DNA from: a virus
Reading direction: 5' to 3' (one strand)
Virus record (IMG/VR): IMGVR_UViG_3300042893_000474
Coordinates: 1 to 64,000 of that record
DNA length: 64,000 nt
Every line of letters starts with the position of its first letter. The stretch's first letter is position 1. The notes under the pieces were generated by a model that saw only the letters and a list, made by a program, of their open reading frames with translations, did no database searches and was not told the DNA's origin. Shown here one piece after another: positions 35,552 through 62,039 of the stretch. Position numbers and translations under genes: made by a program.

Positions 35552-35552
35552 T

Positions 35553-35705: not shown

Positions 35706-35712
35706 TATACTC

Positions 35713-35742
35713 TTGATTTTTATTGTTAATAGAGTATATTTG
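35713..35742 (+). promoter_or_regulatory. Bacteroidota-type promoter for cargo/RNAP genes
   Basis: TTG 35713-35715, 19-nt spacer, TATATTTG 35735-35742. Confidence 0.75.
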
Positions 35743-35803
35743 TATTTAAACTTTTTAAGTGCAAGTATATTTAACTTACAAAGTTAATTAATATTTAAAG
35801 TTA

Positions 35804-38797: not shown

Positions 38798-38800
38798 ACT

Positions 38801-40513
38801 ATGGCTATTTCAGCACAACATACTCAATTTGTAACTAGCCCTTATATAAACGCACTTCCTGCTGAAGACCTTATCAAGGTTGCTTTAAAAAAGCAGGAGA
38901 TGTATGATGAAGGTAAAAAACAAATTAAACAGAATCTAGATAACTATGGTAAGTTACGTAGTAATATCATTAATGAAAATGAACGTAACTACTTTGACCA
39001 AGAGTTAAATAAAATGGTAAAGAACGTTCAGCAAAATGCTGGATTGGATTTTTCTAACATGTCAAATGTAGAAGCTGTAATTAACTTAGGTAAGCCTTTT
39101 GAAAACGACAACTACATTAAGACTGCTCTTGATAATGGAACAGAATATCAGCGTCGTCAAAAAGAATTAGCATCTGTACCTAAAGATAAAAGGAATGCAG
39201 ACAATGATTTAATTTATATGTACGATATCCAAAAACACATTGAAGGGGGAGGACTTGGACAAAAGTTACAAAAAAATACAAGTTACACTCAGTATGTTGA
39301 TATCAAAAAGAAATTAGCGGATATCGAAAAAGACGTACAAGGTGAGATGTCTACTATATATCGTCAAGGTCCTGCAGGGTACATTGAGAAAGTAGACATA
39401 GAAAGAAAAACTAGAGAGCAGATTGCTGCTCGTATTTCTCAAAGTCTTACACCAGATGAACAGGCGCAGATTCAAGTGCATGCACAAGCTCAAATGTATC
39501 GTATGGGTAGTGATGTTGTTTACCAAACTTGGGTAGGAGCAAACAAAGAAGAAGCGTTAATGGCTGAACAAGAATCCAAAAAAGCAATGTATGCTTTAGG
39601 AGATTTGCGAAAGGTTAAGAATCCCACAGCTCAACAACTTTCAGATATTCGAAATGCTGAAAGAGTTATTAAAGAAGCTCAAGACATTAAAGCTGCTACT
39701 AAAGCTAACATTGATATGGATCCTGATCAGTTTGATATGGGAGAGTATCTTCCTTTCTTTACCAATAGATTTATTTCTGGTATTGCAGGAAACCAAGTTA
39801 AAGAGGTAATTAAGACTGACTTAAAAGAAGATAAAGTTTATTTAAAGAACATGGAGCATCGTCAAACAATGTCAGAGATTTATGCAAGAGGTGCTGAGGA
39901 CAGAAAAAATGCTCAGTTTGAAAATGAACTTGAGTACACAACACAAAGTGGAGCATCTACTAATCTTCTTAAAGGTATTAGTAAAGTAGTAACTAATGTT
40001 ACTGGTACTACTGGTTCTGATAGAGTAAATAGTATGATTGCCCAAATTAATGCTAACACTAAATTAGGTGTTACTGTTAAAGAAAGAATGACAAGTCAGT
40101 TAGAAACTTTAAAAAGAACTTACCAATACGCTGAGGCTAATAAAGATAAAGGATATGTGGTTAGCATTAATCGTAGTTTAGGCAATGGTTATGTAACTAG
40201 TGTAGAAGATTTCTTGTCATCTGATCCTGTTCAACTTATTGAAAGTGGAGTTGCTAGTTCTATTGAAGTACGTGCTAAAACAGGAGGTACTGGTAAGTCA
40301 GGCAACAAGACCCCTGAACAGATAGAAGCTGAAGAAGGTGCAAAGACAAGAGGAGAATTAAATGCAAAAGCTAAATTCTTTGAAACCAATCCAGAGTTAG
40401 GTAAAATGCTTTTTGGTAAAACTGGTACTGCTGGTGGAGGAGGTGAAAAAACACCGACTGCAGAAGATTTAAAGAAGACAGCTGAAGCAATCAAAAAGAA
40501 AACTGACAGCTAA
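38801..40513 (+). CDS. virion cargo (ejection) protein
   Basis: Helical, Cys-free; KQEMYD N-terminal motif; synteny. Confidence 0.65.
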   Translation: MAISAQHTQFVTSPYINALPAEDLIKVALKKQEMYDEGKKQIKQNLDNYGKLRSNIINENERNYFDQELNKMVKNVQQNAGLDFSNMSNVEAVINLGKPFENDNYIKTALDNGTEYQRRQKELASVPKDKRNADNDLIYMYDIQKHIEGGGLGQKLQKNTSYTQYVDIKKKLADIEKDVQGEMSTIYRQGPAGYIEKVDIERKTREQIAARISQSLTPDEQAQIQVHAQAQMYRMGSDVVYQTWVGANKEEALMAEQESKKAMYALGDLRKVKNPTAQQLSDIRNAERVIKEAQDIKAATKANIDMDPDQFDMGEYLPFFTNRFISGIAGNQVKEVIKTDLKEDKVYLKNMEHRQTMSEIYARGAEDRKNAQFENELEYTTQSGASTNLLKGISKVVTNVTGTTGSDRVNSMIAQINANTKLGVTVKERMTSQLETLKRTYQYAEANKDKGYVVSINRSLGNGYVTSVEDFLSSDPVQLIESGVASSIEVRAKTGGTGKSGNKTPEQIEAEEGAKTRGELNAKAKFFETNPELGKMLFGKTGTAGGGGEKTPTAEDLKKTAEAIKKKTDS

Positions 40514-43500
40514 TGATTTCTCCAGGAACTATACGAGCAGCATCCTTAGTTAGTAAGGGTGTTTCTCCCGAAGCGGCTTTAAGAACCGCTAATAATATTG
40601 ATATCTATACTGAGAATAGAAGAAGTTTTTTGGCTTCTAATCCTACTACAAATCAAGTTACTCCTAATACAAGTATTAATGGTAGTAGCACTAGTGCAAT
40701 TCCAAGTACAGTAGTAAATACTCCAACACCTAGCCCAATGGCTAAAGGAGTATCTCTAGGTAACATAAACTCTTCTCTTAGTAACGTAGCAGTTAAAGCT
40801 AGTAAAGATTTTACAAAAGACGAATCAGATGCCATAAGTAAGTTAGCTGCTAGTGTAGAAAATCCTATTAAAAAGAAAGCAATTGTTTTTGGAGACCCTA
40901 CAGCTTTAATAGATGATCAAGCAACTTCTGAGGGGTTAGCTAAACTTAGTCCAAAACAATTAGGACAATTAGGAGCAAATCTTCAATCTACTTTACACCA
41001 AAACTATATTGATAATCTTCCTACTGCTTCAAGTAAACTTAATTTTGTTCCTGATCAATACAAGAATAAGAACTATGAGAAAGAATTAATCAAGAACTTA
41101 GATAAGTTATACATTGATTATAACAGTGGTTTGATGGATTCTCCTACAGTTGCAGGTTTGATGAAGGCAGAGCACACTAAAAGATTAAGTAGTTACCAAG
41201 GACTTGTTAAAGGATTTACAACTTCAAAAGATTTTAATGGGCTGTCAAAGAGCTATGAAGGTTTAATTAGTGAACTAGATCTTCAAGATAAAAATGCTAC
41301 TGATGAATTTGAGAATGCACAAAGACAATACAATCGAGGTAAGTCAGATATAAAACAAACTTCTTTAACTGTAGGGCAAGGTTCTCAAGATTACCAAAGA
41401 AACAAGAATAAATACAAAGCACTAAAAGAAGAACTATCTAGCGTATATAATAAAAGAGCTAATGCTATGTTAGCTAATGAAGTTTTAGACATAATTGATA
41501 CTAGATATAAAGAAGCTTCAAAGGTTAATCCACAGTTATCTAAAGAAAAGTTTTTTGAGCAACAGCAAAAACAATATGGATTAGATAAGAGTGCATTTGG
41601 ACTTGGTCAGATATTAGTAGAATCAGGAAGATTTGAAAGCTATCAAGACTATATTCGTTTCACTAATCCTACTAAATATTCCAAAAAGTCAACTACGGCA
41701 GGAAGAGAACAAGGCTTTACTTTAGAAGATCCTTTTGTAAAAAATAACACAGAAGCTTTAGACCTTAGTAGATCTTATGAAGGAATGTCTAACGTACAAG
41801 GGTACGACCAAACTAGAAATAGAGAAACAGGTAGCTATAAATATAACGATACTAAAGATGATCTTATTTTTACTGGTATCAAATTCGCTCAATCAATTTC
41901 AGAGGAATTAGATAATAGAACTATCAAGTCTATTAAAGAACGTGAGCAGTTAAAGTTACAGTACAATAAAAAAGAGATGCTTGGTACATCTACTAAAGAA
42001 GATAAACAACAATATGAAACTCGACTAGCAGAGTTAGATAGTCAAGTAGAGTATAGTGATTCTTTTAGCAAAACAATTCCAGAAGTATACAAGTACGACA
42101 AAATAAAAAACAACGGTCTTATAAAAAGTTTTGCAGAGGATCGCAGACTGTTTTTAGATCAACAAAAGAATTGGAATGATCTAAAGAATGCCCCCGTACA
42201 AACTGCTTGGTATCAAGATGTTGCTTTAAGTATGATGGTAGGCAATTTTGGTAAAACTCAAACAGGAGCTTACTGGAAAGAACTTGGAAATAGAGTGTGG
42301 GGAAAAGCATTAGGCATGGGTGCTGACATTGCAAAGTTTACTGACCAAACAATATTAAATGAAACCTTAGGAGTACCTAAGAGTGCTAGTTATAACGATA
42401 GGAATCAATTCTACAATTACATGAGGCAACGTTTAGATGTTCCTGAAGTAATTGATGAGAGAGCAAGTTTAATGGCAGGAAAACCAATTACAAGTACAAC
42501 TATTTTTTGGACAGACCCAGCAGCAAGTTGGTACAATCCTACAGGTTGGAACTTTAGTTGGAAAGGTACTTTAATGACAGGTGCAGAAACTTTACCACAG
42601 TTGTATGCTTTTTCTGGAGCAGGTAGAATAGCTCAAAGTTTAGGGGGAGGTGTTTTAAAAGCAGGATTGGCTACTGGTGTTACTACTACACTACTAGGGC
42701 AAGCTAATGCTGCCAGGTTTGCGTTGACTTTACAAAAGACAGGTAGCACAGCCGCTGCTTGGGGGAACACATTTAGAAACAGTAACAATGTTTTCTTAAA
42801 AGAAGCATTGGCTGATCGTATTCCTTCTGCTTTAGGTATGGCTACAGTAATGTACCCAGAACAATACAACAGAACTTTAGAAAGATTAGAAATGCAAGGT
42901 GTGAAGAACGCACGTAGCATTGCTCATAACGTAGCTTTGCTAAGTACAGGTATTGAACTTATTGCTGAAAACTTTGTTCCTAACATCAGATATCTAGATG
43001 ACTTTGCTGAAAAAGGAACTGGCTTTAAAAGTCTTTTAGGAAAACTAGGAGCAAAAAGTTGGATAGGTGACTTTGACCAATACCGTGCATTATACTCTGG
43101 AGTACTTGGAGATAAGTTTTCGGAAAAATCAATTAATTATTTAGCTCGTAACTCTGCAGAACTTTTTGGTAAAGTAGGAGCAGCGGGTAGATTCTATGCA
43201 TCACGTGGTGCAGAGGAAGGTATAGAAGAAGTATTTTCAGAACTTGTTAATGGTGTAATTGACGCTAAGACTAGTTATGCTAATTACCGACAGGAAGCTC
43301 CCAATGAATTAAGTTTTGATAGTATTGTAAATGCTTTTGCTGGAGGATTCTTTGTTCCTTCTGCAGGTGCTAGTAATCAGATGAAAATATACACTGAGAA
43401 TAAAAAATATTCTGCAATGTATGACATGATGATTAACTCGGATTACTACAAGAACAAAATCAATACAGCATTCAAAGCAGGTGAGATTACTCAGGAACAG

Positions 43501-46500
43501 GCTACTAACATGTTAAGTAGGGTTCAAGATTTAGTTTCAGTTGCAGATGAGTTTGGTGTACAAAATTTAAAGAGACAGCCTGATGCTGCTAGATTTACTG
43601 CTGACTTAGTTAATGATGAGGATAAACAGTTTGATTACTTTAAACAAGTACTTAAAGCAAGAGGCATTGAAGAAAAGCTTGGTAAAGATAATGCTGTTAT
43701 AAAAGATGAGGAACGTACTGCATTACTTGCTGAATCTGAAGAAGCGACTAAAAGAATTGATAAGTATAAAAGACAAGTTTCAGTATTTGAGAGTATGTCT
43801 GATACTCAAAAGACTCAGATAGTTAATGATACTATTGCAGCTAAAGTTCAGACTGCTAAGTTTTCATCTAATAGTCAGATTTTATCTGAGTCTATTGAAA
43901 ATGCAGATAATCAACTTGCACGTGCTATCCAACAGAAAGCACCAGAGACTCGTATAAGTGCTTTAAAAGAATACCGTAATGCTTTAATACAAGCTTCTGA
44001 GGATAGAGCATCTGCAAAACAAGTTGCTTTAGATAGAGGAACTTACAATCCAGTTATCCAAGCTGTTACTTCTACTGGAGAAGCATCTCCTTTAGATTTG
44101 TCAGAAATCAAAACAGGAGAAGACGCTATAGATGTAGTAGTGCAATCAATGTTAGATCCTGAAAATGGTATGGATATGTATTATCATATTACAGGTCAGA
44201 CACAACAAAGTTTAGAGCAAGTAAAACAAGATAAAGAAAACCTTGTTGACAATTTCTTAGATTACTTAGAGCAGACTGAAGCAGGCCCTACTGTCGATAA
44301 CACAAGAGAAAGTGCACCTACTACTGCTAACACCGCTACTGAAAGAGTTAAATATAAAACTATATCAGATTTGAATGATTCTCAAAAAGATATGTTTGAG
44401 GATTTAGCGGAAAGAATAGATGATGAACTGTTAGATCTACAAACAAAAGTAGAGAAGTATGATTCTGTTTTAACTCAAGTTTTACAGCACGGGGCTATTA
44501 ATGCAAATATGTCACTAGAACAACAGGAGAAGTTTAGTGATTTTATATTTAAAAAGTTTGCAGCAGTTAAAAAAGTTGGCTTTAAAACTAATCAAGACAA
44601 AGGTTCAGAGTTATTTGACCTACAAGAGTTTGGTTTATACTTAGGAAGAAATCAAAAAGAAATTGAAAAAGAAATAAATGATATTGATGCGGCAATTACG
44701 AAAGAAGAGAATGCTCAGAAAGTTGAACGAGAAGAAGTATCTTTAGATGGTTTAGAGAATGTAGATGCTACTGAAGAACTAAAAGTTCCAGAACTTACTC
44801 CAGAAGATATCACTGACTCTTTTACGAGTAACTTAAATCTACTAGAAAATATAGTAGAGCAGCAGCAAGTAGAAGTTGTAGATAACCAGATTACAGGAGA
44901 AGTAGATACTTTAGTTGATTTGCCTAGAGAACGTTCTAGGATCATTAGTGCTTTAATAACAGAGATAGCAATGAACCCTGATATCAAAGGAGCTCAAGCT
45001 ATGATGGCTGCAGTAATGCAAGTCTTAGGTAAATCTAATCAAGAGATTGCAAAGACTTTGGCTCAAATGGGAGAGATAGCAGAAAACAAACCAGTCAATG
45101 AATCTGATTATACGCACATGTTTAATCTGTACCAATTGGCTCGTATGACTGAGAATGTTCCTGCAAGTACAGAAGCAGTTGAAAATGCGGCTGAAGATTT
45201 AACTGAAGCAGAGCCTGTTGTTGTAGAACCGATTATAGAACCTGTAGTTGAAGTTATTCCAACACCTGTTATTACACCTCCTGCTACAGAGAATCAGAAA
45301 GATGAGTTAGCAGATAAGACACAAATATCTTCTACCACTCCTATGTTCAGACCCACTAGTAAAAAAGACTTGGTTAATCTTGTTCATTATGAGATACAAG
45401 AATCAATTATTTTTGGATTGAATAAAGAGATTAGAGACAAGAAGGATGTAAACACTGCTATAGTAGATTTATTTACTATGATAGATGAAGTTCTTGGAGA
45501 AGAAACTCTTGCAGGTTTAGAAAAAGTTTTTAATGAAGCTGCTAGTTTAGCTGTAGGAGAACAAAGGTTACAAGAGTTACGTGCAGAATTTATGTCTTTG
45601 TTTCCAAGTGGATTCTTAAGACAGACTGTACTGGATTATATGTTTGACCAAATTATTGTTAACAAAGTTGCTCAGTCGGATGTTACAGAAAAAGGAAAAG
45701 AAAAGTTAGATGCTAGTGATGAAGAATTAATTGCTCTTAATAAAAACAGAGAAGTATCAATTCAAATGGCAGATGGCCGCAAGTTTACTAAAGTTAAAGT
45801 AGTAAGTAAAGATGGAGTATTATTGTATGCAATAGAGAAAGGAAAAGAAGATGGCAAAACACTTTGGTTAAAAGTAGATAGAACTAAAGATAAAGTTATT
45901 GGACTTAAGTATCCTATCTTAGGAACTCGACCTATTCAATTTAGTGATTTAAATGCTTTGTTGTTTACTGTACTTGATAATAACGGAAATATTCAGAAGT
46001 ATGGAGAAGATGGTAATAGAAATGAATCAGGAGATAAATCTCTAGCATTTTATTTGCCCACCCCTAAGTATAAAGCAGAACCTACGGAAACGCAGAAACA
46101 GTTCAATGGACTAAGACAAAAGATAGTCGCTGGAGACAGAGTAAAAGTAAATGCTCCTGTTAAAGGTATGTCTGTAAGTAAAGGAGTAGTTACTATTGGG
46201 CAACCTGATGGCTCTACTATAACTAAGAATACAGACTATGCACTTGAATTTAGTACGGAGAACTTATCTGTAAAAGAACAAACTCCAAGTGAGGCTACTC
46301 AATTTACTCAAGCCAAAGAAGCAAAAGTTATAAGTGAGAACATCTCACCAACACAGGCAACAACAATTGCTGCTGTTGAAAAAATGATTGCTGACTCTAA
46401 AAAGATTCCTGATCCAAGTAAAGAAGGTTACCTTATTAATGGGAAGCGTTATGAAAGACAATCTAATTTTGTTAAACGAGCATTAGGAGACAGTAATGTT

Positions 46501-47448
46501 GTTACAGAAGACTCTATCGTTAATATGGAGATGGGTGCAGCTGTAGGTAACTTACTTGATATTATAGGCCGTGACGTACTTGGTGGCAATAAAATAAACT
46601 CTTTAGCTGATTACATTAAAGAAGCTGAACGTATGGGCAAATCTCTTAAAGGAGGTACTGGGTATAAGATTAACTTTACTCAAGAACAGTTTGACCAACT
46701 ATTAGCAGAACTTACAGAAGTTAAGGAGGAATTAAATTCACAAGGGTGGAAGTTGTTTACTGAAGGATTGATTGTACATCGTGAGTTTACTGAAAAAGAA
46801 AAACAAGAAACTGGCTATGAAGGTGTAGCTGGAGCAATGGATATCTTAGCAGTAGATCCTGAAGGTAAAGTACACATCATTGACTTTAAGAATAAGAAGT
46901 ACAGAACTCAAAATAAGTTTACAAGTACTCTGTATAGTTCTAAACAAGGTTATCCTTCTAACGTAAGCAAGTGGTCTATTCAACAAACTACCTACGCTAT
47001 CTTAGGAGAAGACTTTGGATTACCTGTAGATTCAATTAGTATCTTAGCATTTGCATCCGAGTATGCAGAAGCTAATGGTACAGTTACTATTGGTGGATTA
47101 ACTCTAGGTAGTAAGAAAGCAGAAGTACTTGACAAGCATAAGAGTCCTGTGTCAACTAGTCTGATTAAACTTGGATTTGATTCTAAGATTATCAAACATA
47201 TTAAACTGCGTACTGAAAAGCCTTCTAGAGAAATAGCTGTTAAACCTACCGAGGCTACTACTATTGCTGCCGCAGACCAAACAAACTTAGATAAGCTACA
47301 AGAGAATTTACCACAAATAGCTTCAGAAAATGCTGAAAACGTTTTTGATGTATTAAATTTGTTAGGTATAGAAATGGATACATTAGGAGTAATTCTTCCA
47401 ACTGAAGGAAGTACTGACCCTGATGCCCTTAACCCACCCCCATGTTAG
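40513..47448 (+). CDS. giant cargo protein with membrane-like segments and C-terminal PD-(D/E)xK nuclease
   Basis: 2311 aa; Gly/Ala hydrophobic region; GAMDILAV...HIIDFK...QQTTY nuclease motifs. Confidence 0.75.
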   Translation: MISPGTIRAASLVSKGVSPEAALRTANNIDIYTENRRSFLASNPTTNQVTPNTSINGSSTSAIPSTVVNTPTPSPMAKGVSLGNINSSLSNVAVKASKDFTKDESDAISKLAASVENPIKKKAIVFGDPTALIDDQATSEGLAKLSPKQLGQLGANLQSTLHQNYIDNLPTASSKLNFVPDQYKNKNYEKELIKNLDKLYIDYNSGLMDSPTVAGLMKAEHTKRLSSYQGLVKGFTTSKDFNGLSKSYEGLISELDLQDKNATDEFENAQRQYNRGKSDIKQTSLTVGQGSQDYQRNKNKYKALKEELSSVYNKRANAMLANEVLDIIDTRYKEASKVNPQLSKEKFFEQQQKQYGLDKSAFGLGQILVESGRFESYQDYIRFTNPTKYSKKSTTAGREQGFTLEDPFVKNNTEALDLSRSYEGMSNVQGYDQTRNRETGSYKYNDTKDDLIFTGIKFAQSISEELDNRTIKSIKEREQLKLQYNKKEMLGTSTKEDKQQYETRLAELDSQVEYSDSFSKTIPEVYKYDKIKNNGLIKSFAEDRRLFLDQQKNWNDLKNAPVQTAWYQDVALSMMVGNFGKTQTGAYWKELGNRVWGKALGMGADIAKFTDQTILNETLGVPKSASYNDRNQFYNYMRQRLDVPEVIDERASLMAGKPITSTTIFWTDPAASWYNPTGWNFSWKGTLMTGAETLPQLYAFSGAGRIAQSLGGGVLKAGLATGVTTTLLGQANAARFALTLQKTGSTAAAWGNTFRNSNNVFLKEALADRIPSALGMATVMYPEQYNRTLERLEMQGVKNARSIAHNVALLSTGIELIAENFVPNIRYLDDFAEKGTGFKSLLGKLGAKSWIGDFDQYRALYSGVLGDKFSEKSINYLARNSAELFGKVGAAGRFYASRGAEEGIEEVFSELVNGVIDAKTSYANYRQEAPNELSFDSIVNAFAGGFFVPSAGASNQMKIYTENKKYSAMYDMMINSDYYKNKINTAFKAGEITQEQATNMLSRVQDLVSVADEFGVQNLKRQPDAARFTADLVNDEDKQFDYFKQVLKARGIEEKLGKDNAVIKDEERTALLAESEEATKRIDKYKRQVSVFESMSDTQKTQIVNDTIAAKVQTAKFSSNSQILSESIENADNQLARAIQQKAPETRISALKEYRNALIQASEDRASAKQVALDRGTYNPVIQAVTSTGEASPLDLSEIKTGEDAIDVVVQSMLDPENGMDMYYHITGQTQQSLEQVKQDKENLVDNFLDYLEQTEAGPTVDNTRESAPTTANTATERVKYKTISDLNDSQKDMFEDLAERIDDELLDLQTKVEKYDSVLTQVLQHGAINANMSLEQQEKFSDFIFKKFAAVKKVGFKTNQDKGSELFDLQEFGLYLGRNQKEIEKEINDIDAAITKEENAQKVEREEVSLDGLENVDATEELKVPELTPEDITDSFTSNLNLLENIVEQQQVEVVDNQITGEVDTLVDLPRERSRIISALITEIAMNPDIKGAQAMMAAVMQVLGKSNQEIAKTLAQMGEIAENKPVNESDYTHMFNLYQLARMTENVPASTEAVENAAEDLTEAEPVVVEPIIEPVVEVIPTPVITPPATENQKDELADKTQISSTTPMFRPTSKKDLVNLVHYEIQESIIFGLNKEIRDKKDVNTAIVDLFTMIDEVLGEETLAGLEKVFNEAASLAVGEQRLQELRAEFMSLFPSGFLRQTVLDYMFDQIIVNKVAQSDVTEKGKEKLDASDEELIALNKNREVSIQMADGRKFTKVKVVSKDGVLLYAIEKGKEDGKTLWLKVDRTKDKVIGLKYPILGTRPIQFSDLNALLFTVLDNNGNIQKYGEDGNRNESGDKSLAFYLPTPKYKAEPTETQKQFNGLRQKIVAGDRVKVNAPVKGMSVSKGVVTIGQPDGSTITKNTDYALEFSTENLSVKEQTPSEATQFTQAKEAKVISENISPTQATTIAAVEKMIADSKKIPDPSKEGYLINGKRYERQSNFVKRALGDSNVVTEDSIVNMEMGAAVGNLLDIIGRDVLGGNKINSLADYIKEAERMGKSLKGGTGYKINFTQEQFDQLLAELTEVKEELNSQGWKLFTEGLIVHREFTEKEKQETGYEGVAGAMDILAVDPEGKVHIIDFKNKKYRTQNKFTSTLYSSKQGYPSNVSKWSIQQTTYAILGEDFGLPVDSISILAFASEYAEANGTVTIGGLTLGSKKAEVLDKHKSPVSTSLIKLGFDSKIIKHIKLRTEKPSREIAVKPTEATTIAAADQTNLDKLQENLPQIASENAENVFDVLNLLGIEMDTLGVILPTEGSTDPDALNPPPC

Positions 47449-47454
47449 TAAAAG

Positions 47455-53400: not shown

Positions 53401-55515
53401 ATGAGTGACTTTAACACTACTAGTTATAGAACTTCGTTCCAGTCTGAAGAATTATTAACAGCTGGTAGCAAACTAAAGAATAACTTTAATGAAGAAGCTA
53501 TCGACTTTATGTTTAAAGAGTCTGCTTTAGCTCAGTTTAATGTAGGTAGTCTTGTTCAAGAAACTATGAGACAGATTTATCCTCTATCAGATTCTAAAGA
53601 AGTCCATTCAGATATTTATACCTTTATGGAGAGAAAAGGATTGTTCAAAGAAGAGGAAAAAATGCAAGCCATTCAAGGGTACAAGAACAATCTACTAGTT
53701 CCCTATGTTCTACTAAACGCCCAAACGCCAGAGAAAGGAAACTTACTAGAGTACTACAGAGGCAAGAAAGGAATATTTGTAAGAACAACTGCTAATAATA
53801 TGGAAGAAAGATTCCAAAGATTATTACAGAATCCAGAAATGAGGAACAACTTTGTCATGACTAACATCTATATAGACATAGAGAACTCAGGCAGAGAGAT
53901 TGAGTTTAAACTAAAGAACACTGATGTAGACGAGAACAGTAAGAGTTATAGACTTGCTTTCTTAGAAGGTTTAAATAGTCCTAATCCAGAAGTTAAAAGT
54001 TTCTTTGAAGACTTAGGTATGGGTTCGTACTTACAGTATGCAGGTTCATATGCATCTGGCCATGTATCTACTATTGTGCCTCATGAAGTTTATGTAAGCC
54101 ATACTACAAATGCTTTCAACAAACTAACCGAACTTAAAGATACTGATAGTGCTAAGTTTGATGCTTACTTAAGTTTAGTTAGATTCTCTACTAAAATGGC
54201 TCTTGAGACTGCGGGACCTATTAAAGGGTTAAGTACATTCTTTGTAAGTAACTATGCTGAGATGGCTAAGACTATTACTGGATTAAGCCCAGAAGTACTT
54301 AAGCTATATAAGAACAGAGAAAACCTCACCTCAGGTAAAGTAGAGTCTCTTCAGCAATCTCCATCTACTAGTGTTGAAGTAATTCCTCTAAATGAATCAC
54401 AAAGATTTACTAGAGAATCAGCTGAAAAAGATACAGAGTATATGTATTTATTTACAGATAATGCTGGTAGAACATCAGGCTCAGGAGTTATTGATCCTAA
54501 CAGTTGGTATGCTAAAAAATATGGTGCAGATAAAAAATATGCAAGTAAAACACAAGCTGTAGCAAGAGGTCTTAAAAATGTTTATCCTATTACTACAATG
54601 GTAGATGATAAGAGAACTCAATGGACAGATGACCAGTTTAATGAATACAAGAAAATTATTGATGATGAAATAGAAACTATTAAACAGGCATCTAAGAAGT
54701 ATAATGGTATTAAGTTTGGTGCAGAAATGCCTTTTGGTAAAGGTGCTATTTCTAATATGAAAGACAGTGCTCCTAAAATATGGAATTATCTTAATACAAA
54801 ACTTGCTGAAATAGGTATTGATAATACAGGAGATATACCTGTATCTACTCAACCATCTACTAGTGTTAATCTTTTAGTAGAAGCAGGAGTTAAGCCTACT
54901 GATATGGCAGGTAATGCTGCTAAAGATATACAGATGGCTTCTGAGTCTACTCAGTTTATTGGATTCCAATCAGGAACTGCAACTGTGAGTTCTACCAACA
55001 AATACAAAGAAGCTTGGGGAGATAAAGCAAACACAGGAAATTATACTGCGGACGATGTAGTAATGGTTTCAGGTAGTGGTTTATTTAGGGGAGTTACTGA
55101 AGCTCAGATAAAAGAAACTTTAACTAATAAATACAAACCTTTGTTAGAACAGGCTATTGCAGCTGGTGCTTCTTTTAGAGTGGGTAATCAATATGCTAAA
55201 GGAAATCTTTCTGATCAGTTAATTGCTCAGTATCTAAAAACTAAAGGATACCAAGAGGAGAAATTTAATGGGTATTCTAAATGGACTCCTAAAGTTACTG
55301 AAACAAGTCAAGAGATTCAAAAAGAAGTTATAGAAAACTTTGAAGAAGATTCTGATGTTACGGATACCAATGTGCCAAATACTCCGACACAGTTTCCTCC
55401 AACCAAAACAGATGATATTCAACTTACCTTAAAGTTAGACCCTGATCAGAAAGATGATGATAAAGGGAACTTAGATGACTTAGGGTTTGAAGAAGATACC
55501 TGTGAGATAGTTTAA
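47455..55515 (+). CDS. virion-packaged single-subunit double-psi-beta-barrel RNA polymerase
   Basis: 2686 aa; RIP motif near 51910 and catalytic GGDYDIDK (DYDID 52027-52041), the equivalent of DFDID in phi14:2 gp66. Confidence 0.88.
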   Translation: MNACSIKGTSYEKEYRQILSEPAMIFVWNANNEQPLDKKKVGNEVIENPLYTALLNHPVTKGERQNALKLVAQSFLPAFTREYTPNEEGDYSLEQVVSYVEKRQKQAQDQREQLKSSINLPTSMAINIPDGVINETARQIFFSEEQGQDIYDTLQYLLGVKKSWDGVYSELVNQRNTILGRVKAGQHFSEDPERLAYNEILVQNFDKIKSWYDSKEGLVGEAELESQFGDSEDWKSKDKSQAQRASSIILGLVTSLPAYRTAIPGEIDFETGEEYQQVTQVQVQSTVTGLPKSGDFQKNWSLLGSTLSGMTNYSDMYEAIEGLSSRYPQFAYLLSKIPNAKIPGSFKDVRQFLLASEFKRVFSVPEVSSVVVDVTLKENGKIATTQQLKGFQPVRNAVALYDSQYFSYNQKYLVKGLEGNEVNLEGIIEDFQGLFNDLGSALTKKVPMQNFLFPARLDKFVQFLQSVGLGLNNQEYLKSTNINGTKEFIQANLDKLKTIYEKLKIVSIANEYLTDDAKIKVDRPLSFLRDTIQEIYVSKGKVRPDVEAALEQAFADNKLRYKGGVKQAIGYLGIKKTEISPFINFFTQYDAEFRPSSYMNAADKKKFVRGPWFYLTQQTNVINSVSSYDELINIPGFERFDYRKNPDILGSLWLQRMFGLPRTKNAIEANPLGTYVRKKDTLGNPIELNIANFDGMEIKNFGAKSGKTTTDQHPNDKIFQDFASFFQSLEMENIRFGDKTAAFTVRASNPILSEKIYVALNAAELITPTERLESEKSLTELFNGYLASEATRIIKLIEEKGRGTTYDRLGKNLFIFNDILPEDTLNKFKDAKTREEVIAAYTEATSMMSTVLQEYFSQESQKLVDKLVDTFSTSVNITTGQEVTQAQRLKQTVEKLNKLNLISTQLLPSEVRDNPPKITVENLPYLAEIYLKNGFVHNVEFLKMFVGDLSNFDKTNLDAREIFKRIPFTSSPGNVFFWDEAAQEFFDNDTNQDALSIAYTGVANKFSPILKTVVYNDVNTFSSESYQEYKEAYDSDDSWDALTEDEKSEFSEYANKPKEADAQGVITLDSYRNYLLGINRWSSEQEQAYNRQVRLVKINQELNNNPTNAEELYKEKNEIVENFGSALFPPLKLGHYGAIVEDPKLIALHKFSLIPLIPSAIEGKALEKQLELMYRNKINYYTFKSGSKMAQYGESIDFYKEVTNEQGEKVLVVNDALGENNVTSIHLQNLREQQYQAPKFKTQATLATQMMKLVFGDFFENGEISSDFSEGTQRQIESLYDSFKNNINDLITFETIKLERKLGIRRNAAKEIIEVDQLQMARFFAEELENKEAPEALRRFIQVNEDGTFKYPLDAINNRNQLESLVLNVINNKVISQKINGESYIQVAGTGFETKRYVKPTAEQLKEFGANDLQFYTRDPITGETLPMEVKVGFNVKKHGGLLKLEYGKGKVETLKQLNKILGSKAPLDIAWKKKHMDKLTMVGVRIPVQGFSQMEYATIKEFLPESAGAIMVLPAQIVVKSGGDYDIDKLTFFETSYDNKGEVYKKSFNLKDYEAKLEKQKELKKTRQELITLSELLEKEIADNDIFRERESLKKEINEIKKEILNAKAAVEDFLDSGFLTKEDASWAREAASDKEDLQRAFADLDSFDTANDVRVLQTVSLIKSKLREISKEVESIDAYKKSLSNNLVGILKGVLMQGELYNALITPNTNSVLTQYTPPGEKISTTAVFSPLTSWRIYMENILSKDALGIDAKINTLQKEFQRAGLKITGSLLKKYYFESNKDKQGNIILGGKKDARGENRISKVLSEFINGHVDIAKEDWIILLGLDQETSPLAHAMILTGTPVEQVLGLINSPIIKTVLQLGNRPEIQKKLDNIRPNKKKAILGLIKNKLTKVTDPEVKALIDAAQLAISGLKVKSTNGITDTFVNNLLVNPIFNKHISNFKPTESLSEEESAIRDLAYLMQFYVVVRQQESLRELTSMSDFNTTSYRTSFQSEELLTAGSKLKNNFNEEAIDFMFKESALAQFNVGSLVQETMRQIYPLSDSKEVHSDIYTFMERKGLFKEEEKMQAIQGYKNNLLVPYVLLNAQTPEKGNLLEYYRGKKGIFVRTTANNMEERFQRLLQNPEMRNNFVMTNIYIDIENSGREIEFKLKNTDVDENSKSYRLAFLEGLNSPNPEVKSFFEDLGMGSYLQYAGSYASGHVSTIVPHEVYVSHTTNAFNKLTELKDTDSAKFDAYLSLVRFSTKMALETAGPIKGLSTFFVSNYAEMAKTITGLSPEVLKLYKNRENLTSGKVESLQQSPSTSVEVIPLNESQRFTRESAEKDTEYMYLFTDNAGRTSGSGVIDPNSWYAKKYGADKKYASKTQAVARGLKNVYPITTMVDDKRTQWTDDQFNEYKKIIDDEIETIKQASKKYNGIKFGAEMPFGKGAISNMKDSAPKIWNYLNTKLAEIGIDNTGDIPVSTQPSTSVNLLVEAGVKPTDMAGNAAKDIQMASESTQFIGFQSGTATVSSTNKYKEAWGDKANTGNYTADDVVMVSGSGLFRGVTEAQIKETLTNKYKPLLEQAIAAGASFRVGNQYAKGNLSDQLIAQYLKTKGYQEEKFNGYSKWTPKVTETSQEIQKEVIENFEEDSDVTDTNVPNTPTQFPPTKTDDIQLTLKLDPDQKDDDKGNLDDLGFEEDTCEIV
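54361..54867 (+). repeat. 15-bp in-frame direct repeat CCATCTACTAGTGTT (PSTSV) bracketing a domain
   Basis: Exact copies at 54361-54375 and 54853-54867. Confidence 0.85.
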
Positions 55516-55526
55516 CTTACAAAGTG

Positions 55527-55556
55527 AAGGGGTGCAAGTCTTTACTTGCATTCCTT
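55527..55556 (+). terminator. hairpin terminator after RNAP, overlapping the next promoter
   Basis: AAGGGGTGCAAGT-CTTT-ACTTGCATTCCTT followed by T-rich sequence. Confidence 0.65.
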
Positions 55557-55575
55557 GTTATTTCGATTAAATTTG
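55546..55575 (+). promoter_or_regulatory. Bacteroidota-type promoter
   Basis: TTG 55546-55548, 19-nt spacer, TAAATTTG 55568-55575. Confidence 0.7.
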
Positions 55576-55601
55576 TATAACTAATAATACAACATTCTAC
55601 A

Positions 55602-58600
55602 ATGTCTTGTTTTGCAAAAATAAAATCTCCACTCAACGGTAAAACTATAACTAGTCCTGCCTACTACCAATTAACATCATTTTTTCCACCTGCTGAAGGG
55701 AGAAGAATATATGAGGCTACTACCACTATTAGTTTTAAAACCGAAATTGGTTTTGATTGGACTAAACGTCAACAAGGATACAGCCCTAAGCTAAACTTTG
55801 CTGGGGAGCCTACTTTAGATCAAATCAATACACACCTTAGACTAAACTTAAATCCACGGGAGATTAGAGCAGGAGAACAAATGGATGAAGTAGCAAGTCT
55901 AGGTTACCTAAACAAAGGTTATGCTAATCCAAATGCTTTTAACCTAATCACCAACGAGATTAACTTAAACCCCAAATATAGTTTAATAGAGAGCGAGGTA
56001 CTAGCAAGAGACGGCAAGTACTATCTATCAGTTAAACCAGTACCAAATGGCAAGTCTGTAAAACCTGTAAGTAAAGATTACTTAAGAACAGTAAAGTTTC
56101 CTGATATGATTGTTAACAGTGTTGAGGATTTTTCCAATGCAGGGTTAATAGAGTTGATGGATAACTTACTTAAGAACAAAGAGTTACCTCCTTTCCAACA
56201 CAAGATGTTAGAAAGATTGCGTAATTTAATGAAGATAAACCCAACACTTAAACTTGCAGTATTTGATGATGCTGAAGTAGACCAAGAGTTTCAAAGGTCA
56301 TTTTACGACCCCAAGAGTAACACCATATACATTGGTAAGACAATAACATCAGATTTTAATAAAGAATCATTTGCTCGTGAGTTAATTCACGAAGCAGTGC
56401 ATGCTTATACTATCTCAGCTTTAACTAATCCAGTAACTGCCGAAGAGAATAGATTCAGACAGGAGATGGAAAGATACATCTCTGAGTATAAATCTAAGTT
56501 TCCTAGACTACAACAGCAGTATGGTTTTAAAAATGTAGAAGAATTTGTTTCGGAGTATCTCTCTAATCCCTACTTTAGAAATGATTTACAGGAAGCAGAG
56601 AGAACAAGTAAAGATAAAACATTTATAGGCCGTGTTACAGGCAACATAAAGAGATTCTTAAAGAACGTATTAGGTTTAGGAGATACTTTGTTTGACAGAG
56701 TTAACCAAACGATAGATGATTACTTTGACTATCTGGAGAATCTAGAAGACATGCCTGACCTTGCAGGTGAGCATGAACTAAGATTTAACCAACCTTATGC
56801 AGCACAGCCTGTAAACCCACTTAGTGTTAACTTGAGTCAGTTCCAACAGTATGTTGATAGTACTTTTAATAGTTCTAGTTGGAAGCAACTAAGTCAAGGG
56901 TTATCTGAGATTGATCCACGTTTTGCTTCTATTGAAAGAATTAGGGAGAAATTTGGAAACATCTCAAGTGCGTCATTAGGCAGCACTATTAAATCTTCTA
57001 TTGACTATCTAGTAGCAATAGAGCAACTAGTAGATAGAGTTGCTAAGGATGTTGATTTGCACAGAGACAACTTAGGCTATTATAGTTCAGAAGATGCTGT
57101 ATCGGTATTTAATCATGCAATACATATAGCTGAGTTTGTTCAAGAGCAGATGGCTGCTTACAATCAATATTTGATGCCTCAGTTGAGGATGGAACAAACA
57201 AAAACTGACTTAGATATAAACCCTGTAGGAGCTGCAGAATTTAGACAAGAGCGTAGAAGTCAAGTAGAGAATTTTGATATTGTATCTCAGGAGTTAATTG
57301 CCAAACTTAAAGGTATCTCTAACAAATCAAACAGTTTAAAGAGTGAAGCTAAGTCTTCTATTTTAGCTCCAGTAGCATCCCAGTTAAGTGAGCCTTTTAT
57401 ATTAATTGCTGCTCAGTTAAAAGAGCCCAACAGTCAATTGAACCAAGAGATTGATGCTAAAGAAAAGTTGTATCAACAAGCTTTGGCAAGCAATCAGAAT
57501 AAGAAAGCAGCTGATATGTTAAAGGACTTGAATCAACTTAGAATGTTTAGAGATTGGGTTCCTACCCAACAAAACATTATTAAGTTGCTTCAGACTGGTA
57601 TGAATCCTGAGTACACAGGTGCTAACTTTTTTACTATTTACTTGGGAGTGGCTAACATGACAGGTAGCCCTTTGGTTCAAGTAGTTAAAGAATACTTAGA
57701 CGTACACTTGACTGAAGCAGGTAACAAGAGTCTTGAGTACACCAATAGAGCAAGTAAATTATTTGATAAAATTGAAGCTAGGAATAAAAAGCAAGGTATT
57801 CGTTGGACACAAAGTATAGACAACTTTTACAAGAACTTAACTCGTGAGGTTGATATGGTTTACTATGACGCCAATGGTGTGCGTAGAGTAGTAAAACAAC
57901 TTGCTTATAATACAAAGTTTAAAGAAGCTGAGTTCAGAAATGATTTACAGGAGTTAAAAAGAAATGTAGATTCGGCTAAAAAGGGAGGAGTAGAGGCAGA
58001 AATAGTAGAAGCTCAAGAAAAATTACAAAAGTTCCTAGATGATTACGCAGTACGCCCTTACACAGATGAATACTATGAAGCAGAAGATTTATTAATTTCA
58101 GAAGCTAGAGATGCTAGAGCAGATTTATTAGACCAACTAGAAGAGCACCAGGCTGTGTTTGGAGATGCAGAGGCTAGTCAAGAAGAAAGAAAGCATAGAA
58201 CAGAGTTAAGAAGAGCTTATGAAAGACTAGGTTCTATTTATAATGAAGATGGTACTGAGAAACCTAAAGGAACTAAAGAAAGAAACATTGCAGATTCTAT
58301 TATTGCTTATAAAAATAAACGTAAGGCACTAGAAGCTATTGAATTTGTAATCCCAGATAAAGTTAAAGTACGTTTTGATATTGAGAAGAACTCACGTAAA
58401 CAAAAAGTAGCTGACTTAGAACGTAAGATTAGTATCTTAAATACTGATATTGCAGATGAGATTGCTCTTGGGCAGGATCCTACTACTAAACAAAATGAGT
58501 TAGTAGATATAACAGCACAGCTAGAAATAGCTAAAAATGATTTAACTAAATGGCTCAATGCTAACACTCGTACTGAGATTGACCCTGAGTTTTTTGAATT

Positions 58601-61600
58601 GCAAAGAAGCATTGCAGATAAAATCAAAAACATCTTTCTTAAATATGGAGAAGATCCTTTATTAAGTGAGGCGTATGATGAGTTGTTTAATTCAGTTAAA
58701 GGGTACAGAGACCAGGATGGTATTATAGTAGGTAGCCAAATCCAGAGAGGATTAGGACAAACTATTAAAGACTTAGAGACAAAGATTGAAAAACTTAAAG
58801 AGGACGCAGAAGAAAATAGACAGATATCTGACCAAGATAAAGAAACTCTAAAAGTTCTATTCAAACAGATCAGCGATATTCAAACTAAAGAAACTACTGA
58901 ATACTACGTAGAGCAATACAACAGCGTTGCTCGTGCCGCTAGAGTAGACTTATATGCAGATGCTCAACAAGTAATAGAGATTAAAGAACTTTCGGAAAAA
59001 TTAGCAGACCAGTATATTGAGAATGAAGGTTTAGTTGACGAAGATTTAGAGTTAGACGATAACTTACCTGTTCTAAACCATCCTTCTGAATTTGGTACAG
59101 ATAAACATAGGAATGATTTGATATCTTCTTATGAGAATATGATTACTGAGATGCGTTTGCAACAAAGAATCAAAGAAAGCGATTGGTATAAAGGAAATCA
59201 TATTTCTATTAAGAAGAGTTACACAGATAAAAAGACAGGAAAGAAAGTAATTAAGATTTACGAAAGACCTATTTATATCTGGAACCGTACTATTCCTCGT
59301 AATGCTGCTTATATAAAACAAGAGAACCCAAACTTTGATTGGGCAGTACCTAGAGTTAGAGATGAGTACAAAAACAAAGATTATAATTTCTTAGGTTCTG
59401 CTAGACCTAGACAAACTACAGACAATAAATATACTAACGAAGTTTATACTAAATCACTACAAGACGATAAAGACATTGCTGATGAGATGGTAGGTCTTTA
59501 TGAGGACATACAAAGAAACTTGCCTGTATCACAACGTCTTGAAGGTTATGTTGTACCTAACAAGACTAGAGAGGCTAAAGAAAATATAACTGATATGTTT
59601 ACTAATCCTTTGGCTAGATTCAAAGGTTGGGTAGATGGTTGGAAACTTATCTTTAAACCAGGTTTAGCGGGAGAAGATCAGTATGAAGATGAGATATCTA
59701 GTTTAATTAATGAAGAAGACAAACAAAAGATATCAAAATCAAAAAGAAAAGTACAATTAATTAAAACCAGATATAAAGAACCTTTAAACACAAATCAAGT
59801 ATCCCGTGTATTAGTTCAATCACTTGCTGAGTATGGTGCATATGCTGCTGAATTTGGAGGATTAAAGAAAGCAATGCCTGCAGTATTTGCTGCTAGAGAA
59901 GCTGCTTTAGAGACAAACATACCTGATGGAGATGTTCAGATGCTGGATAATGAGATTCAAAGATTCTTTTATGGAGGGGAAGTAAGCAATACTAGTTTGG
60001 GAAATAATCCATACATGAAGGCTACTATGCGTGCTATGAGAAGAATGTTCAGGTTTAGTCAGAGTCGAGTCTTGTTGTTTAATTTTCTGCGTGTATTTAA
60101 AAACATCTTTAACAACTTCCTTAAGATTGTTTTAAGTAAGAATAAGTATGGATTAACTAGAAAAGAATTACTCAGAGCATGGTGGAAAGGTTTAAATATG
60201 AGGCGAAGTCTGGTATCACTAGAGATAGGTTCTAAACAACATAGTGACTATGCATTAAAACTAGTTCATTTTAGAGCGTTACCTGCAGCAGACCCAACTA
60301 AACTAGCATCAAACGTACACCAAACAAGTATTTTTAAATACGCCAACGCTGAGAATTTCAGTGGTCAGATATTTGGATATATGGAGATGGCTTCTACCAT
60401 ACCTATTTATGAAGCATTAATTGCTCGTTTGGATGTACCTATTGTAATTAACGGTCAACAAACTAGAATTAACTTAAGCGATGCTTACGAAGTAATTGAT
60501 GGTATTCTTGTTCCAAAAGAAGGAGTATTTGGATTAGAGTTAAACGCAATGCGTTCTTTAGTAGAAGATAGAAAGCAAATAATATCAACGTATTTAGCCC
60601 AAGAAGGAGTCTCTACTATAGAAAAATTAAGCAGTGCGCAAAAGACAAAGTTAAAAGGACTATTAACTTCAATAGACGTAAAGATTAATAGTTTAGAAAA
60701 AGTAAACTCAGTAAAGCAAGAAAAGTTAAAATTAATAGAACAACAGTTAAGAGACCAGATACACGAATTATACACTAGTACACAGGGTAACTACTACGGA
60801 AGATCTCGTTCTGCTTATGAGAAGAATCTTTTTGCAAGTATGGTAATGTCTATGAGACGCTGGTTAGCTCCTAATCTTCAGACAAACTTTGGACAGCGTA
60901 GACTTTCTTTGTACACAGGTAATCTAGAAGGAGGATTTTATGCAGAGGGTGGAAAATCTTTACTTAGAAAAATGCGATACTTAGTCGCTGGAGAGAGAAT
61001 GGATTTAGGAAGTACTGAGTTTGAGAAAGAAAAGCATCAAAGAATATTTAGAGATACTTTAAACGTAGTAGGACTACATGCTATCTCATTAGGATTAACT
61101 TCACTTTTATTTATGGGATTAGGAGGTGGAGGAGATGATGACCCTTCTAAGTTGTTATCACTTCTAGCTATTATTTCTTTAGGTACATATGATGAAGCAA
61201 TTAGTTTACATCCATTACTAGCTCCTGCAAACTGGACTTATAAAACATTCTTTAGACAGCCTTTGGCAAGACCAGGAGATGAAGAAGGAGGTGCTAGTAG
61301 TGCAGTGAGACATGGACTCTATGCTTTATTTGGACCTCAGATGAGAAGTTTTGACCAAATTTTTGAAGCAATTTTTGACTCAAGAAATATTACAGACCCA
61401 TTTGAACCTTACTACGAACAAAGAAGAGACATGGGAGGTAATAGTATTGTTAATACCCCTGCTCCTACTAGAGGATTACCTAGAGTACTTGCAATGGCTA
61501 TGAAGTATTATGGAGTAGAGTCAGGTTTAAAACCATTCTATGCGCCTAGAAAAAGAGTTATGGATATGTTAAAACTTAATCCTATGTTAGGAATGCAAGA

Positions 61601-62039
61601 TCCTTTGGGAGATTACGTACAAATTCAACAAAAGATATCTGATTTACAAAAAGATATCCTAAAGAGAGACCCTCAAGATAATGTCTACTTTATGGAAGGC
61701 GAGTGGGATAAAATGTCTAAACCTGATGTAGAAGAAATGAAATCTAAAGTTGCTGAGTGGGGAGTTCTTAAAGTAGAAAAGATGATGATGGAGTCGTCAA
61801 ACCCAGTTATTGAAGCTGCTAAAATGGAAAAAGACATTAGTGCTTATGAAGGTTCTCAAGATGTAAAACAGATAGAATTTATGTTGCAAGACTTTTATGA
61901 TGTTAAATTACCTAAAGCTCCTAAGAATGAACAGACTGAATTTTATAAATCAGTAGAGAAAGCATTTCAAAAGAATAGACGTAGCACTATCCAGAAAAGT
62001 TTTGAGCAACTACAACAAAGCCAGATGTCTCCAGAATAA
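55602..62039 (+). CDS. giant cargo protein with zincin metallopeptidase domain
   Basis: 2145 aa; LIHEAVH (56388-56402) plus downstream EEFVSE; C-terminal hydrophobic hairpin. Confidence 0.78.
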   Translation: MSCFAKIKSPLNGKTITSPAYYQLTSFFPPAEGRRIYEATTTISFKTEIGFDWTKRQQGYSPKLNFAGEPTLDQINTHLRLNLNPREIRAGEQMDEVASLGYLNKGYANPNAFNLITNEINLNPKYSLIESEVLARDGKYYLSVKPVPNGKSVKPVSKDYLRTVKFPDMIVNSVEDFSNAGLIELMDNLLKNKELPPFQHKMLERLRNLMKINPTLKLAVFDDAEVDQEFQRSFYDPKSNTIYIGKTITSDFNKESFARELIHEAVHAYTISALTNPVTAEENRFRQEMERYISEYKSKFPRLQQQYGFKNVEEFVSEYLSNPYFRNDLQEAERTSKDKTFIGRVTGNIKRFLKNVLGLGDTLFDRVNQTIDDYFDYLENLEDMPDLAGEHELRFNQPYAAQPVNPLSVNLSQFQQYVDSTFNSSSWKQLSQGLSEIDPRFASIERIREKFGNISSASLGSTIKSSIDYLVAIEQLVDRVAKDVDLHRDNLGYYSSEDAVSVFNHAIHIAEFVQEQMAAYNQYLMPQLRMEQTKTDLDINPVGAAEFRQERRSQVENFDIVSQELIAKLKGISNKSNSLKSEAKSSILAPVASQLSEPFILIAAQLKEPNSQLNQEIDAKEKLYQQALASNQNKKAADMLKDLNQLRMFRDWVPTQQNIIKLLQTGMNPEYTGANFFTIYLGVANMTGSPLVQVVKEYLDVHLTEAGNKSLEYTNRASKLFDKIEARNKKQGIRWTQSIDNFYKNLTREVDMVYYDANGVRRVVKQLAYNTKFKEAEFRNDLQELKRNVDSAKKGGVEAEIVEAQEKLQKFLDDYAVRPYTDEYYEAEDLLISEARDARADLLDQLEEHQAVFGDAEASQEERKHRTELRRAYERLGSIYNEDGTEKPKGTKERNIADSIIAYKNKRKALEAIEFVIPDKVKVRFDIEKNSRKQKVADLERKISILNTDIADEIALGQDPTTKQNELVDITAQLEIAKNDLTKWLNANTRTEIDPEFFELQRSIADKIKNIFLKYGEDPLLSEAYDELFNSVKGYRDQDGIIVGSQIQRGLGQTIKDLETKIEKLKEDAEENRQISDQDKETLKVLFKQISDIQTKETTEYYVEQYNSVARAARVDLYADAQQVIEIKELSEKLADQYIENEGLVDEDLELDDNLPVLNHPSEFGTDKHRNDLISSYENMITEMRLQQRIKESDWYKGNHISIKKSYTDKKTGKKVIKIYERPIYIWNRTIPRNAAYIKQENPNFDWAVPRVRDEYKNKDYNFLGSARPRQTTDNKYTNEVYTKSLQDDKDIADEMVGLYEDIQRNLPVSQRLEGYVVPNKTREAKENITDMFTNPLARFKGWVDGWKLIFKPGLAGEDQYEDEISSLINEEDKQKISKSKRKVQLIKTRYKEPLNTNQVSRVLVQSLAEYGAYAAEFGGLKKAMPAVFAAREAALETNIPDGDVQMLDNEIQRFFYGGEVSNTSLGNNPYMKATMRAMRRMFRFSQSRVLLFNFLRVFKNIFNNFLKIVLSKNKYGLTRKELLRAWWKGLNMRRSLVSLEIGSKQHSDYALKLVHFRALPAADPTKLASNVHQTSIFKYANAENFSGQIFGYMEMASTIPIYEALIARLDVPIVINGQQTRINLSDAYEVIDGILVPKEGVFGLELNAMRSLVEDRKQIISTYLAQEGVSTIEKLSSAQKTKLKGLLTSIDVKINSLEKVNSVKQEKLKLIEQQLRDQIHELYTSTQGNYYGRSRSAYEKNLFASMVMSMRRWLAPNLQTNFGQRRLSLYTGNLEGGFYAEGGKSLLRKMRYLVAGERMDLGSTEFEKEKHQRIFRDTLNVVGLHAISLGLTSLLFMGLGGGGDDDPSKLLSLLAIISLGTYDEAISLHPLLAPANWTYKTFFRQPLARPGDEEGGASSAVRHGLYALFGPQMRSFDQIFEAIFDSRNITDPFEPYYEQRRDMGGNSIVNTPAPTRGLPRVLAMAMKYYGVESGLKPFYAPRKRVMDMLKLNPMLGMQDPLGDYVQIQQKISDLQKDILKRDPQDNVYFMEGEWDKMSKPDVEEMKSKVAEWGVLKVEKMMMESSNPVIEAAKMEKDISAYEGSQDVKQIEFMLQDFYDVKLPKAPKNEQTEFYKSVEKAFQKNRRSTIQKSFEQLQQSQMSPE

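Follow-up and report, generated by a model that had tools for sequence, protein, structure and literature searches.

The three giant cargo proteins encoded in a crAss-like phage genome carry cysteine (Cys) only where the end of one protein faces the start of the next, an arrangement that recurs in their relatives. The window analyzed, a 64,000-nucleotide (nt) stretch of viral DNA (positions 1 to 64,000 of IMG/VR record IMGVR_UViG_3300042893_000474), contains three giant, abutting open reading frames (ORFs), p1, p2 and p3 (Table 1), whose products we take from homology to be packed in the capsid and injected into the host. Among their combined 7142 amino acids (aa), a computed count finds four Cys, at p1 -1, p2 +4, p2 -4 and p3 +3 (negative numbers are counted from the C-terminus). 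This placement lies far beyond chance. The explanation we favor, as a probable rather than a secure one, is that each C-terminal tail docks on the N-terminus of the next protein and that a disulfide links the facing thiols in particles that are closed or released, yielding a linear p1-p2-p3 molecule.

A sequence-only reading of the window had noted by eye both the four Cys and the bareness of the two outer ends (the N-end of p1 and the C-end of p3); the computed counts and, for the four Cys, direct reading of their codons agree on both points. Elsewhere in the window, the other 21 ORFs that reach at least 150 aa contain 115 Cys among 9193 aa (1.25%). Cys is absent from four proteins encoded immediately upstream of p1 (32670-40513; 0 Cys in 2527 aa by computed count). 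At a frequency of 1.25%, the resulting 9669-aa cargo block would be expected to contain ~121 Cys, against the 4 found (Poisson P(<=4) = 3e-46), and the probability that four randomly placed Cys would fall one in each 4-residue facing end window is ~2e-12. The chain mass of about 800 kDa proposed in the earlier reading matches the computed sum for p1, p2 and p3 of 806.5 kDa. That reading had also described the C-terminal tails as acidic and disordered; their acidity is borne out by the net charge of the last 80 aa (-9 in p1, -15 in p2), while their disorder was judged by composition only.

Several features place the block among the RNA polymerase (RNAP) cargo of crAss-like phages. A terminase (phrog_6681, E 9e-91), a portal protein (phrog_6547, E 1e-98) and a major head protein are encoded upstream on the + strand. 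The p2 sequence includes GGDYDIDK, which fits the two-barrel RNAP catalytic motif D[FY]D[IV]D and whose D1525, D1527 and D1529 are invariant in an alignment of 28 homologues, and p3 contains a zincin-like HEAVH motif (residues 263-267). By BLASTP against crAss001, p2 matches gp50 (E 2e-13), p1 matches gp47 (E 1e-8) and p3 weakly matches gp49 (E 5e-3); the window is very divergent from the cargo of cultured crassviruses, with 22-24% identity over short stretches. When GenBank phages were searched by tblastn, the conserved core of p2 retrieved the crAssphage "RNAP catalytic subunit" and the N-terminal 1000 aa of p2 gave no match. PDB chains returned no match for p2, p3 or the p1 profile in single-sequence or profile searches, which leaves the identification of p2 as a virion RNAP homologue to depend on the motif and on its relatedness to annotated crass proteins. 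Pfam and PHROGs offered nothing useful for p1-p3: p2 matched only DUF7831, just under its cut-off, and p3 gave weak matches to Pfam DUF7217 (E 0.0068, below cut-off) and phrog_37402 (E 0.00098). The presence of p1-p3 in the virion is predicted by homology with two cultured phages, as the crAss001 counterparts gp47, gp50 and gp49 were found in virions by mass spectrometry (MS) (Bayfield 2023, PMC10172136), and gp078, gp077 and gp076 of phi14:2 are all annotated as virion proteins from MS.

Homologues were gathered from a set of 5.8 billion proteins, the listed relatives numbering 36 for p1, 120 for p2 and 39 for p3. Every listed p1 homologue (36/36) has exactly one Cys, located at -1 to -5, and none has one at the N-end; C2311 itself is invariant in the p1 alignment. 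The p2 homologues, which range from 2,000 to 4,650 aa and descend to 22% identity, typically possess two Cys, one per end. All 120 listed carry the C-terminal one (-1 to -8), and those with a p2-type N-terminus carry the other at position 3-6, the MNACSIKG start being kept to about 50% identity. For p3, 38 of the 39 listed homologues have an N-terminal Cys (position 3 in 37, position 4 in one), mostly within MSC[FI]A.IK, and none has a Cys near the C-end. Conservation of the terminal Cys among cargo homologues, which the sequence-only reading had put forward as a check, thus extends down to 22% identity. The residues flanking the Cys are not conserved between lineages, its exact position drifts (-1 to -9 at C-ends, 3 to 6 at N-ends), and both TGT and TGC are in use. 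This variation in codon and position points to selection on a residue near the end rather than on a DNA motif.

Cultured and reference phages display the same arrangement. In crAss001, gp47 (2341 aa) has a Cys at -3 only, gp50 (2412 aa) has one at 5, one internal and one at -9, and gp49 (1349 aa) has one at 5 only. In phi14:2 (GenBank numbering, in which gp077 is the crystallized RNAP termed "gp66" by Drobysheva 2021), Cys occurs at -1 of gp078, at 3 and -2 of gp077 (2180 aa, DFDID at 1361) and at 3 of gp076. Two-protein versions are found in crAssphage LMMB, with a 1957-aa protein (Cys -2) followed by a 4070-aa protein (Cys 3), and in Flavobacterium phage FPSV-S29, with a 4419-aa protein (Cys -2) followed by one of 1596 aa (Cys 3); cr118_1 and cr53_1 also obey the terminal Cys rule. 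The BLASTP pairs p1-gp47, p2-gp50 and (weak) p3-gp49 reproduce the order predicted by Cys, and the p1-p2-p3 order proposed in the earlier reading fits both gp47-gp50-gp49 and gp078-077-076. The gp47 gene lies on the strand opposite gp50 and gp49, yet its Cys is kept, which indicates that gene adjacency is not required. The giant genes of cr53_1 (L084, NC_055889, Suoliviridae) contain many in-frame table 11 stops (40 in the 4645-aa ORF), as would be expected if stop codons are recoded; the terminal Cys rule holds there (-2 / 3) despite these stops.

The rule was then quantified by junction. An IMG/VR pattern scan with the p2 alignment retrieved 80 loci with 10-kb flanks, of which 79 were distinct and were scored, a junction being a pair of consecutive low-Cys ORFs of at least 500 aa and an end Cys being one within 12 residues of the facing end. 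Among the 154 junctions in these 79 loci, 122 have Cys at both ends, 31 at neither, and one is borderline (L009, upstream Cys at -19). The 31 junctions devoid of Cys are located among Cys-free upstream proteins, or between those and the first chain member. Over the 519,355 aa of surveyed proteins, terminal Cys number 250 against 34 internal ones, and all 250 lie at most 9 residues from the chain end. In complete chains, an N-terminal Cys is never seen on the first member, nor a C-terminal one on the last. Chains of two, three and four proteins all obey the rule, three-member chains being the majority.

These counts weigh heavily on two alternatives. The first treats the Cys as a by-product of DNA constraints at gene junctions, such as coupled translation signals that happen to spell TGY codons, or as chance occurrences where overall Cys content is low. 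Many of the genes do abut or overlap, but the equally tight junctions of the Cys-free upstream genes, including that with p1, carry no Cys (31/31), and the p2-p3 spacer in the window measures 86 nt. Position and codon both vary, the non-adjacent gp47 of crAss001 retains its C-end Cys on the other strand, and chance placement is already negligible in the window alone. With junction counts, position and codon variation, and the gp47 strand all opposed to it, this explanation is rejected as far as sequence can tell, and we regard it as scarcely credible.

The second alternative holds that the Cys act independently of one another, in homotypic dimers (p1-p1, p3-p3), in cyclization of p2, or in links to capsid, portal or DNA-end proteins. 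Sequence by itself is silent on which thiol meets which, and one crAssphage protein encoded upstream of the chain has an unpaired C-terminal Cys. We nevertheless see only a slim prospect for this idea, as the Cys of a C-end and that of the next N-end appear or vanish jointly in 153/154 junctions, the first N-end and last C-end are always free in chains of two, three or four, and C-to-N pairing is directly visible in cyanopodophage A4 (discussed below). Intramolecular cyclization of p2 was rejected as a general rule, since no member of a two-protein chain bears a Cys at each end.

Gene fusion and splitting agree with pairing between consecutive ends. In two-member chains, p1 and p2 are fused into an ORF of 4,150-4,950 aa whose p2 region begins about 1,600-2,000 aa in. 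The sequence-only reading had suggested looking at whether fused relatives lose the Cys, and the junction pair is indeed absent from fused p1-p2 (L023, L066, L068, L071, L072, L074 and others). On a tree of the polymerase core, three independent fused/split pairs behave as expected, none behaves in the opposite way, and two are uninformative (sign test p 0.25). In four-member chains, the addition is either a protein of 500-650 aa that bears a Cys at each end (L016, L050, L064) or one more member on the upstream side (L062). Pfam has no family for these small members; those of L016, L050 and L064 may represent additional injected cargo plugged into the chain. Two loci depart from a simple fused or split layout. 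L063, labeled "fused" by a crude criterion, has an N-terminal extension that retains its Cys. The same label took in L076 (1854-14854), where a 243-nt gap parts the polymerase region from a 2044-aa upstream ORF and neither side has a Cys. Position 462 of the profile is where the downstream piece begins, and rather than a true protein boundary the gap probably reflects a fused gene disrupted by a frameshift, an intron or a misassembly.

We infer the bond itself, its timing and its role in threading; the precedent for the bond is A4, a cyanopodophage in whose virion pre-ejectosome cryo-electron microscopy revealed a disulfide between gp27 Cys1715 and gp26 Cys5 (PNAS 2025, PMC12002296). Within the disulfide-chain model, selection would have purged Cys from p1-p3 while sparing one within a few residues of each facing terminus, and the facing thiols would oxidize once the particle is closed to cell reductants or released from the cell. 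The product would be a linear p1-S-S-p2-S-S-p3 molecule of ~806 kDa. Since each bond would lie no more than about 9 residues from the terminus of a chain, the joint would be barely thicker than a single polypeptide, and partly unfolded p1-p3 could move through the portal and the tail as a single thread of which only the leading end must find the channel. Host thiol reductants would free the proteins in the cytoplasm, and the purge of internal Cys would reflect that any other cross-link would jam extrusion. The earlier proposal that C-to-N disulfides join the three proteins in gene order, and would thereby set their stoichiometry and their order of ejection, is, in sum, partly supported.

A static role for the same bonds is the most substantial competitor, although we judge it unlikely: head-to-tail disulfides would lock an ordered cargo or pre-ejectosome for assembly, co-packaging or stability, and would play no part in threading or ejection order. 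The A4 structure lends it weight, as gp26 accommodates the C-terminal helix of gp27 in a cleft and the disulfide there "further stabilises" the pentameric ring (PMC12002296). Many relatives of the window proteins also have C-ends that resemble short amphipathic helices ending in Cys (LLDDLEC, LFNLEICE, LINEKICK). A stabilizing bond, however, could sit anywhere on an interface, whereas the 250 terminal Cys are confined to within ~9 residues of an end with essentially none elsewhere, which fits thin-joint threading and is unexplained by a simple stabilizing bond. Moreover, the C-tails in the window are long, acidic and poor in hydrophobic residues, and look more like leashes than interfaces.

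A further option dispenses with the disulfide, the facing Cys instead sharing a metal ion at a site completed by nearby acidic residues, or undergoing other thiol chemistry by which the termini are held or marked. C-terminal Cys are often flanked by Asp or Glu (EEDTCEIV, EESCDLG, DPFKC), and assembly takes place in a reducing cytoplasm. Still, each end offers a single Cys with neither a conserved His nor another Cys close by, which limits a joint to two thiolate ligands; the residues next to it show no conservation across lineages; and the identical signature in A4 is a disulfide. We rate the chances of this option as very slight.

Several points weigh against the disulfide chain as a threading device. 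Virions assemble in a reducing cytoplasm and the gut habitat is anoxic, which raises the question of whether and when the thiols would oxidize. It speaks for the model that disulfides do form in crassvirus particles, having been described between the tail hub and ring proteins of crAss001 (Bayfield 2023, PMC10172136), but these could stem from aerobic purification. The A4 bond is part of an ordered ring complex and was described as stabilizing, not threading, and BLASTP detects no sequence homology between A4 gp26/27 and p1-p3 (best E 0.036 or worse). Not every terminal Cys conforms, either: the single Cys of an 861-aa protein encoded ahead of the crAssphage chain, at -2 (...GGKQSCR), faces a next protein (857 aa) that is Cys-free. 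Finally, only ~3 independent fusion or split events accompany loss or gain of the N-terminal Cys, which makes the fusion argument suggestive, not statistical; stronger evidence is the upkeep of the Cys pairs across very deep divergence.

How folded protein amounting to megadaltons travels from a podophage capsid through a narrow tail into the cell, and in which order, is an open question for crassviruses (Bayfield 2023, PMC10172136; 2026 N4 paper), and a sequence-readable rule that predicts which protein ends meet offers a direct handle on it. If the disulfide chain exists, virions of crAss001, phi14:2 and FPSV should yield a reducing-agent-sensitive species of ~700-800 kDa with specific linked peptides. 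It would also explain why cargo genes fuse or split freely, and would constitute a natural redox-released protein chain for delivery. Proteins that are Cys-free save at their ends may further serve to recognize injected cargo in the genomes of uncultured phages. As a more tentative and rather doubtful extension, all Crassvirales and, independently, some cyanopodophages could build a redox-cleavable end-to-end polymer of 7,000-9,000 residues that is threaded singly through the tail and cut by host reductants into working enzymes, the Cys pair making gene fission tolerable and extra cargo plugging in via a Cys at each end.

Table 1. Positions of the cargo genes, their terminal Cys codons and other features named in the text.
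Feature	Sequence	Positions	Strand	Description
Four consecutive Cys-free proteins	window	32670-40513	+	411, 549, 997 and 570 aa; upstream of chain
p1	window	40513-47448	+	first chain member, 2311 aa, 256 kDa; sole Cys is the last residue; N-end without Cys
p1 nuclease-like motif	window	46810-46902		residues ~2100-2130
p1 Cys2311 codon	window	47443-47445	+	TGT (...NPPPC), then tandem stops TAG TAA; codon read directly
p2	window	47455-55515	+	middle chain member, 2686 aa, 304 kDa; Cys only at 4 and 2683 (-4)
p2 Cys4 codon	window	47464-47466	+	TGT (MNACSIKG); codon read directly
GGDYDIDK	window	52021-52044	+	p2 residues 1523-1530; D[FY]D[IV]D catalytic motif of two-barrel RNAPs
p2 Cys2683 codon	window	55501-55503	+	TGT (...EEDTCEIV), end of acidic tail; codon read directly
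p2-p3 spacer	window	55516-55601		86 nt, with inverted repeat
p3	window	55602-62039	+	last chain member, 2145 aa, 246 kDa; sole Cys is residue 3; none near C-end
p3 Cys3 codon	window	55608-55610	+	TGT (MSCFAKIK); codon read directly
HEAVH	window	56388-56402		zincin-like motif of p3
Extra protein	L016	15493-17244		Cys at both ends; between polymerase and last member
Extra protein	L050	18396-20363		Cys at both ends; between polymerase and last member
Extra protein	L064	8510-10030		Cys at both ends; between polymerase and last member
861-aa protein	crAssphage LMMB, MT006214 (L082)	1639-4224		unpaired terminal Cys, outside the head-to-tail rule

The surroundings of the chain in the window present further features. 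The four upstream Cys-free proteins are probably smaller cargo or channel proteins (C1/C2-like), judging from their position only. The 549-aa protein matches phrog_7595 (function unknown), the sole PHROGs match among the four, and the 570-aa protein (MAISAQHT...) has a Cys-free MAISAQHT/MPISAQHT counterpart preceding the chain in L002-L010 and L037. The p1 and p2 ORFs share a reading frame and are separated by TAG TAA AAG (47446-47454); these tandem stops argue against a read-through fusion. Within the spacer between p2 and p3, an inverted repeat (tgcaagt ctt acttgca) precedes a stretch rich in T; the two may form an intrinsic terminator or an attenuator that separates the polymerase gene from p3. 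Near its C-terminus, p1 displays a conserved motif (...GAMDILAVD...HIIDFKNKK) resembling a PD-(D/E)XK nuclease site. This C-terminal region also yields the crAss001 gp47 match, and no Pfam or PDB sequence match was obtained for it.

Among the closest known systems are the cargo proteins of crAss001 and phi14:2, which are homologous to those of the window, share the DFDxD-type motif and show the same terminal Cys pattern. Crass cargo has been proposed to be partly unfolded during extrusion, in an order set by protein interactions (Bayfield 2023, PMC10172136). Cargo cysteines or a covalent link receive no mention in Bayfield 2023, the Drobysheva preprint or the 2026 N4 paper on crass cargo, and literature searches, with most subscription journals outside their reach, found no description of the terminal-Cys rule in crAss phages.

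Schitoviridae and T7 resemble the window in their strong suppression of Cys in proteins that exit via the tail. The ejection proteins of Schitoviridae (virion RNAP gp50 of N4, gp71-gp73 of DEV) are Cys-free, and avoidance of disulfides in the periplasm is discussed by the DEV authors (PMC11445570); in T7, used here as a control, gp15 and gp16 lack Cys altogether and show no terminal pair. T7 gp14 (gene 14, L090 1229-1819) contains a single Cys at residue 2 (MCWAAAIP), for which gp16 offers no C-terminal partner. The difference is that the Schitoviridae and T7 proteins have no Cys whatever, whereas suppression in p1-p3 stops exactly at the facing termini. Complete absence of Cys, as in N4 and T7, is seen in the four upstream proteins of the window and not in p1-p3.

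The sequence-only reading knew of no description of such a system, a statement that is not fully accurate in view of the A4 gp27-gp26 disulfide (PMC12002296). In the A4 sequences (Anabaena phage A-4L, KF356198), gp27 (1717 aa) has a single Cys at -3, gp26 (1114 aa) a single Cys at 5, and gp29 none. As in the window, consecutive large ejection proteins present a lone C-end Cys to a lone N-end Cys, and the two signatures are identical. A4 differs in that a single link joins just two proteins, the core is T7-like and pentameric, and no RNAP is present, and its bond was reported as a structural detail of one phage, neither a conserved rule nor a chain. In the window, by contrast, an RNAP is a member, and in crassviruses two to three links would occur in series under a rule kept across the order. 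The relation between the window and A4 would accordingly be one of mechanism, not of family; beyond what is known from that one structure, the crassvirus genomes point to a multi-link chain that includes the RNAP and is conserved across Crassvirales.

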